From a virus (lineage: Duplodnaviria > Heunggongvirae > Uroviricota > Caudoviricetes), in IMG/VR virus record IMGVR_UViG_2529293044_000014, positions 1-15,111 of that record: a stretch of 15,111 bases of DNA; one strand, 5' to 3'. Numbering within the stretch: the first letter of the stretch is position 1; each line of letters opens with the position of its first letter. Positions 3,001 through 6,000 of the stretch are shown piece by piece. Position numbers: made by a program.

Positions 3001-6000
3001 ACGCCAGCAAACTGGAGGAGTTTTCGAAAGAGTGGCAGGACGCTAACGATAAGTGGAATGCCATGTGGGGCGTCAAAATTGAGCAGACCAAAGACGGCAA
3101 ACATTATGTCGCGGGTATTGGCCTCAGCATGGAGGACACGGAAGAAGGCAAGCTGAGCCAGTTTCTGGTTGCCGCTAACCGTATCGCGTTTATTGACCCG
3201 GCAAACGGGAATGAAACGCCGATGTTTGTGGCGCAGGGCAATCAGATATTTATGAACGACGTGTTCCTGAAGCGCCTGACGGCCCCGACCATTACCAGTG
3301 GTGGAAATCCACCGGCATTTTCCCTGACATCAGACGGAAAGCTGACCGCTAAAAATGCGGATATCAGTGGCAGAGTGAATGCGAACGCCGGGACGCTCAA
3401 CAATGTCACGGTAAATGAAAACTGTACGATTAAGGGCATGCTGGAGGCGACTCAGGTCAGAGGTGACTTCGTTAAAGCTGTATCCAAATCATTTCCGAAA
3501 CAGGCTGGTACGTGGGGTAACACGGAAACACCAAACGGGACGGTTACAGTCACCATCAGCGATGATCATAACTTTGACCGTCAAATCATTATTCCGCCCA
3601 TTATCTTTAACGGAATAGCGTATAGCTATCCGGGAAGTGGTAATAACCCGGGAGGTACAAGATACACGGGGTATGGTTTTGAAGTTCGCAAAAACGGTGT
3701 ATTAATCGCATCCAGAGAAACTAAAGGGGCCATTCCCGGTAGCTACAGTGCGGTTATTGATATGCCGAGTGGCAGGGGAAGCGTCACCCTGGAGTTTAAG
3801 GTTTTCCATAAAGGCAATCAGTGGGCAGGTAATATCACCGACTGTACGGTGATTGTGACCAAAAAGCCGCTTCCGGCATCAGTATTCGTTGAAATTGTTA
3901 TAACCCATATAAGGGCACCAAAAATGGTGCCTTTTTTATTGCAGAAAAGCGAGAGGTAATTATGCGTAAAGTTTGTGCAGCCATTTTGTCCGCAGCCATC
4001 TGTCTGTCCGTATCCGGTGCGCCTGCATGGGCGTCTGAACATCAGTCCACACTGAGCGCGGGGTATCTTCATGCCCGGACGAACGCTCCCGGTAGCGATA
4101 ATCTTAACGGGATTAACGTGAAATACCGTTATGAATTTACGGACACGCTGGGGCTGGTGACGTCATTCAGCTATGCAGGAGACAAGAATCGCCAGCTTAC
4201 CCGTTACAGCGATACCCGCTGGCATGAAGATTCCGTGCGTAACCGCTGGTTCAGCGTGATGGCGGGGCCGTCTGTACGCGTGAATGAATGGTTCAGCGCG
4301 TATGCGATGGCGGGTGTGGCTTACAGCCGTGTGTCGACTTTCTCCGGGGATTATCTCCGCGTAACTGACAACAAGGGGAAAACGCACGATGTGCTGACCG
4401 GAAGTGATGACGGTCGCCACAGCAACACGTCTCTGGCGTGGGGGGCTGGCGTGCAGTTTAACCCGACCGAATCCGTGGCCATTGATATTGCTTATGAAGG
4501 CTCCGGCAGTGGTGACTGGCGCACTGACGGTTTCATCGTGGGTGTCGGTTATAAATTCTGATTAGCCAGGTAACACAGTGTTATGACAGCCCGCCGGTTC
4601 AGGCGGGCTTTTTTGTGGGGTGAATATGGCAGTAAAGATTTCAGGTGTACTGAAAGACGGCACAGGAAAACCGGTACAGAACTGCACAATCCAGCTGAAA
4701 GCAAAACGTAACAGTACCACTGTGGTGGTGAACACGCTGGCCTCAGAAAATCCGGATGAAGCCGGGCGTTACAGTATGGACGTTGAGTACGGTCAGTACA
4801 GCGTTATTCTGTTGGTGGAAGGATTTCCTCCTTCGCATGCCGGGACCATCACAGTGTATGAAGATTCTCAACCCGGTACGCTGAATGATTTTCTCGGTGC
4901 CATGACGGAGGATGATGCCCGTCCGGAGGCACTGCGACGTTTTGAACTGATGGTGGAAGAGGTGGCGCGTAACGCTGAGGAGGCGAAGAAGAATGCCGGA
5001 GAGGCGGAGACGTCAGCAAGGAATGCCGGCATATCAGCCAGTCAGGCAGAAAAGAGCGCTGCACATGCTGACACTTCAGCAGGATATGCATCGGAGTCAG
5101 CCCGGCAGGCGACGGAAAGTGCAGCCTCAGCAAAGCAGTCAGAGGAGGCGTCCTCGTCCTCGGCCTCTGAGGCCGCTCAAAAAGCCAGTGAGTCATCACA
5201 AAGTGCAGCAGAAGCTGAATTGTCAAGAAAGACGGCAGAAAGTGCAGCCGGTAATGCATCCAGGGATGCAACGACCGCAGCAGAAAAAGCCCGGGAGTCA
5301 GCAGAAAGCGCACAGTCAGCGGAACAAAGCAGGATAGCGGCGGAAGACGCCGTAAACCGAATCCCCACCGTGGTGGGACCTCCCGGGCCAAAGGGGGAAC
5401 CGGGGCCCGCGGGTCCTCAGGGGCCGAAGGGTGATAAGGGAGAGCGCGGTGACACCGGCCCTGTCGGGGCAACCGGCGAACGGGGACCGGCAGGTGATGC
5501 TGGTCCGGCAGGCCCGCAGGGGCCGAAAGGCGACAGGGGAGAGCGGGGAGAGACCGGTCTGACGGGAAATGCAGGTCCACAGGGTCCAAAGGGGAGATAC
5601 CGGTGCGGCAGGTCCGGCAGGCCCACAGGGACCGAAAGGAGAAACAGGTGCGGCTGGCCCGGTGGGGGCAACCGGACCTCAGGGACCAAAGGGCGACCCG
5701 GGGGAGACACAAATCCGTTTTCGTCTGGGGCCGGCGAGCATTATTGAGACAAACAGCAATGGCTGGTTCCCGGATACAGATGGCGCACTCATCACCGGAC
5801 TGACCTTTCTTGACCCCAAAGATGCCACACAGGTTCAGGGGCTGTTTCAGCATTTGCAGGTCAGGTTTGGTGACGGGCCGTGGCAGGATGTTAAGGGGCT
5901 GGATGAAGTGGGCAGTGATACAGGCAGAACAGGAGAATGACATGAACGTACTAAAAAAACTTATGCAGCGTCTGTGCGGGTACGGAAAGCATGATGACCG

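Follow-up and report, generated by a model that had tools for sequence, protein, structure and literature searches.

A single extra G splits the collagen-like side tail fibre gene of a decaying lambdoid prophage: draft-assembly miscall or private knockout?

The virus record IMGVR_UViG_2529293044_000014 of IMG/VR, a caudoviricete record that was analysed at its full length of 15,111 nucleotides (nt; the window in the following), contains a side tail fibre gene (stf) that loses its reading frame in the middle of a collagen-like Gly-X-Y repeat. The question is whether this gene is really broken in its host, or whether it is only broken in the record. The window is the entire contig AIFD01000003.1 of the draft assembly GCA_000249235.2 of Escherichia coli DEC2E, and it represents the tail end of a lambdoid prophage, with J, lom, the side tail fibre gene and a small open reading frame (ORF) for a fibre C-terminus, followed by a type III effector locus. 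A single additional G is responsible for the frameshift, and this G is found in no other copy of the gene that could be compared. Either it is a miscall or it is a recent knockout private to this strain, and both would be ordinary events; a miscall appears to be the better explanation.

Frames, domains and the exact lesion

When read from the ATG at position 4626, the native fibre is encoded up to the sequence GPQGPKG, the last residue of which is codon 323 (GGG, 5592-5594), and after that codon the frame runs into a nonsense stretch that reads RYRCGRSG...GEHY. The +1 frame takes over at 5596 with further Gly-X-Y repeats and then a globular C-terminus that extends to 5940, so that translation agrees with what the original prediction had described. 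Pfam recognizes phage_tail_N (PF08400, residues 1-133, E 9.5e-70) and Collagen (E 4.7e-14) in the frame-0 piece, and Collagen (E 2.4e-6) together with Phage_fiber_C (E 5.1e-37) in the +1-frame piece. As Pfam domains match on both pieces, the split fibre gene is real, far beyond chance. Exact look-ups of the two truncated products of 373 and 123 amino acids gave no record for either of them, and the annotation of the submitters does not call them.

Annotated intact orthologues with the same start, which carry the label 'prophage tail fiber N-terminal domain-containing protein', have a gene length of 1314 nt (437 amino acids), whereas the gene in the window has 1315 nt. In the alignment, the sole difference in length is a GGGG at 5591-5594 in place of GGG. 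The claim that an additional base in the collagen-like repeat breaks up what would otherwise be one ORF of about 438 codons therefore holds, as all orthologues are continuous with 437 amino acids and differ in length at this G run only. The base itself had been named as an A at about 5595 and has to be corrected to a G of the run; either deletion restores the same protein. Once one G is removed, a protein of 437 amino acids results that has 37 unbroken Gly-X-Y triplets (residues 251-361) and its C-terminal PfC domain back in frame, and in the deposited form 13 of these triplets and the C-terminal trimerisation domain are lost from frame 0. The region between the N-terminal domain and the collagen repeat (residues ~134-250) is of the PCoil type, rich in Ala, Ser and Glu, very poor in Leu, Val and Ile, and of low complexity. 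The gene thus has the constituents of EPclA, the prophage collagen-like protein A of enterohaemorrhagic E. coli (EHEC), an example of which is ECs2717 of O157:H7 Sakai (Ghosh et al. 2012, PMC3368898). The PfC domain (PF06820) is present solely in the +1 frame and not in the same frame as the rest of the fibre, which means that the DNA belongs to the EPclA-type family and that the ORF as deposited is an incomplete member of it.

On the minus strand, an ORF for 470 amino acids (4849-6261) overlaps the fibre gene; it has likely arisen as a side effect of the G+C-rich repeats in the coding sequence. In place of the fibre gene, the submitters have annotated antisense ORFs (4562-4735 and 4849-5391, minus strand), and on the sister contig AIFA01000045.1 of the same project the intact fibre gene is likewise uncalled, with antisense ORFs annotated instead.

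A singleton allele and a second homopolymer frameshift

To look for the GGGG allele, 5,426 complete E. coli genomes were searched with an 80-nt query that spans the site, which 700 of them contain at altogether 4,556 places. Not one of these 4,556 places is an exact match to the GGGG query, and the best matches are to its 79-nt GGG version. A pattern that recognizes either allele detected 125 GGG copies and no GGGG in 123 loci (IMG/VR contigs, two species representatives of GTDB and two E. coli loci), the exact GGGG pattern was found neither in IMG/VR nor in metagenome contigs, and the ratio of GGG to GGGG over all 149 loci that were fetched is 145:0. The two-ORF arrangement, conservation of which in orthologues had been named as one of the findings that would refute the initial interpretation, is therefore not conserved, and the GGGG allele is a singleton. 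Intact length variants of the gene do exist (1305, 1323 and 1326 nt as compared to 1314 nt), and some copies have 9-nt indels right next to the lesion, at ~5606-5613, but all of these differences are multiples of 3 nt, in most cases 9 nt, which leaves the reading frame unchanged. Exact look-ups with the repaired Stf and J proteins found neither of them in the collection, so that there is no independent assembly of this very allele for comparison, and a homology search with the repaired fibre protein returned only relatives of at most 90% identity with shorter collagen domains and no sister allele. One 3.8-kb contig (SFGJ01000067.1) of a metagenome-assembled genome labelled 'Clostridiales bacterium' has an exact 38-nt match to the fibre gene and is probably a binning contaminant.

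The fibre gene is not the only gene in the contig with such a lesion. In the tail tip gene J, 1.7 kb upstream, an A5 run at 3861-3865 stands where the relatives have A6, and the resulting frameshift replaces the last 8 residues (AASGISIR) by a 30-residue read-through that crosses the terminator hairpin of J up to the start of lom. The A5 version is not matched exactly at any of 2,649 places in 2,006 complete genomes. The J product of 1159 amino acids is recorded from AIFD01000003.1 alone, and the full-length members listed for its cluster (n=4,993) have 1137 amino acids.

The closest relatives, which were reached through a look-up of the Lom protein, include the NCTC assembly L130 and the already mentioned contig AIFA01000045.1 (L134). 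Over ~5 kb, their identity to the window amounts to 98.7-98.9%, and all of them carry GGG. As compared to L130, the window has no indels except the two homopolymer changes, and only one further indel is seen with L133 and L134, right where the alignment begins (window position 3287). The 55 substitutions are grouped in patches that are typical of exchange between prophage copies, among them those at 5396-5480 and 5774-5844, and from 5845 to 8367 (2.5 kb) the window does not differ from L130 at all. Since the substitutions come in such recombination-like patches and the 2.5-kb stretch has none, there are unusually many new indels for the number of new point changes. Other genes of the window were of little help in finding a nearer relative: a look-up with nleC gave only contigs that begin at an insertion sequence (IS) junction and have no stf attached, nleB2 has an allele so common that it does not single out a near-identical assembly, and the poultry strain E2 (CP104509) shares the IS10-nleC junction of the window, but the identity of its stf is just 94.6%.

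These relatives also give an idea of what real and what doubtful lesions look like at this locus. AIFA01000045.1 is 99.96% identical to the independent NCTC assembly L130 over 5.2 kb, and nevertheless its J has, at position ~2850 of the contig, a private change of A8 to A7 with respect to two NCTC assemblies. Another break in J, at locus position ~2171-2184, is common to L133 and L134 and is therefore real, as these are an NCTC and a DEC assembly, and in L130 an IS66 element has inserted into J. The fibre gene is intact in relatives whose J is already dead.

Origin of the extra base

According to the explanation that we prefer, the extra G would be a homopolymer-length miscall in a draft assembly of 2011-12, made in a multi-copy, G-rich prophage gene, and the real fibre gene of DEC2E would be intact. 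Among the origins considered, this one is the most likely and has a reasonable, though not an overwhelming, probability. Whereas the lesion, its uniqueness and the second private homopolymer indel in the contig are observations, a technical rather than a biological cause is what we infer from them. A technical cause is favoured because GGGG is a singleton that is matched neither in the genomes nor in IMG/VR, the metagenome contigs or the fetched loci, because a second singleton homopolymer frameshift exists in J of the same 15-kb contig, because new indels are unusually many relative to new point changes in comparison to the closest relatives, and because the sister contig of the same project has its own private homopolymer change in J.

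The fetched loci further indicate that lesions of this kind are frequent in older drafts. They include 81 full-length fibre genes (78 from IMG/VR), 12 of which are disrupted, at scattered sites, mostly by 1-nt indels, many in homopolymers and with up to four in one gene. All 12 come from three older draft-genome batches, which corresponds, among the 78 copies from IMG/VR, to 12 of 34 in five early batches and 0 of 44 elsewhere (Fisher p ~1e-5, with the batches grouped after seeing the data). The lesions of these disrupted copies are an error signature. Identical contigs that would link these IMG/VR draft batches with the DEC project were not found. Pyrosequencing is known for errors in homopolymer length, and the changes described here resemble the errors of drafts from the pyrosequencing era in that a single base is gained or lost in a mononucleotide run, in that this is private to one assembly, in that more such changes occur in the same contig and project, and in that they are concentrated in older draft batches. 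Contemporary E. coli drafts of the same centre were generated with 454 Titanium and the Celera assembler (PMC3491183).

There are several points that speak against a miscall. The 454 platform is documented for contemporary drafts of the centre and not for DEC2E itself, and the G call is that of the deposited consensus. The run is also short: it is a matter of three or four G, and pyrosequencing consensus errors are uncommon in such runs, and longer G5 runs in the same fibre gene are correct. The repaired proteins are, as mentioned, not on record elsewhere. Moreover, the locus is visibly decaying. An IS10-type element (of the ISVsa5 family in the annotation of relatives) has inserted ~80 nt into nleC and is flanked by a 9-bp target duplication (TACTCTGCT); this junction is shared by strain E2, and two further draft contigs have it at their ends. 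As compared to the O55:H7 strain TB182A, ~1.5 kb between nleC and nleD are missing, including most of nleH1-1, of which only the last ~170 nt are left (window ~10709-11072). Tail genes are not exempt from such a decay, as J is truly broken or interrupted by an IS in relatives, with breaks common to independent assemblies, and in two finished genomes (L141, CP015831, and L146, CP157146) an IS3-family insertion splits the fibre gene (locus ~6900-9550), both of which are verified real inactivations of that gene. As stf is truly disrupted by IS elements in some finished genomes, a real frameshift would be no surprise.

It is thus possible, if less well supported, that slippage in the G run has generated a genuine, recent +1 insertion, private to this strain, which inactivates the stf of a defective prophage that is kept for its effector cargo. 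The decay of the prophage end, the real J lesions in related copies, the IS knockouts of stf in finished genomes and the limited susceptibility of a G3 run to miscalls can all be read in favour of such a knockout, and a precedent is laboratory lambda (PaPa), whose stf was reportedly described as frameshifted by Hendrix and Duda in 1992. The truncated product would then run from PfN through the coiled coil into the collagen stalk, of which two thirds are retained, and would end with 50 junk residues instead of PfC. By analogy to PfN-PCoil, which trimerises alone, a truncated trimer might form, but fibre function should be lost without the distal PfC domain. What makes a private knockout doubtful is that the allele occurs in no other genome, so that nothing indicates its inheritance, that the contig has a second private homopolymer indel and the sister assembly of the project a third, that stf is still intact in relatives with a dead J, and that point frameshifts in the fibre gene are met in older draft batches only.

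Two further ideas take GGGG as real and functional, and both have been rejected, as GGGG is not conserved and the tract is short. Shifts at hungry codons and prfB are known cases of +1 frameshifting, and it may be considered that ribosomes shift by +1 at GGG-AGA, so that some full-length fibre is made from two frames. The 0-frame codon that follows the run is the rare Arg codon AGA, the run lies within the G-rich, Shine-Dalgarno-like AAGGGGAG, and tRNA-Gly could, from the sequence, re-pair from GGG to GGA; low-level slippage at this site would let the 'broken' gene give a small amount of functional protein. This is most improbable, and so is such a residual synthesis, since a programmed site should be conserved and all of the more than 4,500 homologous sites are in frame with GGG; a canonical +1 motif is absent at GGG-AGA. 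Equally improbable is a phase-variable switch, in which reversible length changes of the G tract or of the collagen repeat would control whether the fibre is made: the gene does vary via its repeats, but the intact variants all keep the frame, a tract of just 3-4 G is far short of the length of contingency loci, and every other copy has G3 at this position, without any length polymorphism.

Three origins had initially been offered for the frameshift. An error of sequencing or assembly has become the most likely one, an inactivating mutation keeps a smaller probability, and repeat-mediated variation has to be dropped, since the variants of the repeat are in-frame multiples of 3 nt and the lesion lies in a plain G3/G4 run.

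If the frameshift is an artefact, the DEC2E record should have an intact fibre of 437 amino acids and a J of 1137 amino acids, and the draft has too high a pseudogene count. A real frameshift would be another case of tail-gene decay in a prophage that the host retains for the type III effectors it carries. No open question depends on which of the two is true, and the significance does not go much beyond annotation hygiene: in older drafts, mis-assembly and mis-annotation often affect multi-copy prophage fibre genes of the collagen-like kind.

Gene order and known relatives of the fibre gene

The features of the window are compiled in Table 1. Their order resembles the J-lom-stf-nleB2-nleC-nleH-nleD layout of O55:H7 and O157:H7 strains.

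Table 1. Coordinates (nt of the window), strands and characteristics of the genes and of the parts of the fibre gene
Feature	Position	Strand	Characteristics and basis
127-aa ORF upstream of J	36-419	+	without Pfam match
Tail tip gene J	480-3959	+	private homopolymer frameshift near the 3' end; deposited as EHU63346.1, ECDEC2E_0280
lom (Ail/Lom outer membrane protein)	3962-4561	+	intact; lies before the fibre gene, as is standard (J-lom-stf)
Side tail fibre gene	4626-5940	+	frameshifted; translation and Pfam
Fibre gene, native frame, codons 1-323	4626-5594	+	PfN, coiled coil, 24 Gly-X-Y triplets and the Gly of the 25th; translation, Pfam, same start as orthologues
Fibre gene, lesion	5591-5594	+	GGGG, GGG in all relatives; frame lost after codon 323; alignments
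Fibre gene, out-of-frame tail of the frame-0 ORF	5595-5747	+	50 nonsense residues, TGA at 5745-5747; translation
Fibre gene, +1-frame remainder	5596-5940	+	rest of the Gly-X-Y triplets and PfC (Phage_fiber_C) trimerisation domain, stop at 5938-5940; translation, Pfam
89-aa ORF	5942-6211	+	intact, own Phage_fiber_C domain; Pfam E 9.9e-35
NleG-like ORF	6326-6904	+	
nleB2	7266-8246	+	
IS10-type element	8368-9695 (transposase 8380-9588)	-	
nleC remainder	9750-10637	+	295 aa
nleD	11106-11804	+	
torT	12279-13307	+	
torR fragment cut by IS66-family element	transposase 13547-15073	-	

The ORF of 89 amino acids (270 nt) begins 2 nt past the stop of the fibre gene, also in all relatives, and its counterpart is labelled 'tail fiber assembly chaperone' in records of phage 434; it has the same Phage_fiber_C domain as the C-terminus of the fibre itself. 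A partial copy of its 3' end, together with a terminator, is found at ~6983-7160, after the NleG-like gene, and such repeated ends of fibre genes look as if they bound effector cassettes. At the other end of the window, the chromosomal flank (12279-13480) comprises torT and the 3' part of torR, which is severed by an IS66-family (ISCro1-type) element that reaches the end of the contig. Through this torT/torR flank, the prophage end borders on the tor locus, an arrangement that strain E2 shares.

Earlier work has already described this gene family together with its architecture and its position in lambdoid prophages, and nothing in the window is new in kind. In EPclA proteins, PfN is followed by an Ala/Ser-rich trimeric coiled coil (PCoil), the collagen triple helix (Col) and PfC, with PfN-PCoil trimerising by itself and PfC being a demonstrated trimerisation module that has been proposed to be the receptor-binding end; ECs2717 forms a dumbbell-shaped trimer (PMC3368898). 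The fibre gene of the window has PfN, PCoil, Col and PfC and the same position after J and lom, and the primers that were published for cloning match the start of the gene (ATGGCAGTAAAGATTTCA) and the start of PfC (ATCCGTTTTCGTCTGGGGC). With its 437 amino acids and 37 Gly-X-Y triplets, the repaired protein corresponds to this type, whereas the copy as deposited is frameshifted after codon 323, within Col, and has its PfC out of frame.

On the DNA level, phage 434 and lambdoid phages that convert their hosts to Shiga toxin production (Stx-converting phages) are 96.4% identical over 99% of the region 4560-6300, and they have the same gene pair after lom. These are viable phages with an intact fibre gene, whereas the copy in the window is part of an IS-bearing prophage end and has the extra G.

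Phage lambda can dispense with side fibres, since J alone mediates adsorption. The stf of its laboratory strain PaPa is reportedly frameshifted relative to Ur-lambda, and like in the window, a single-base frameshift splits a lambdoid side tail fibre gene into two ORFs in that case. There are two differences: the lambda Stf belongs to another, non-collagen fibre family, and the PaPa mutation has reportedly been verified experimentally and is fixed in its lineage, whereas the frameshift of the window is an unverified singleton in a draft assembly.

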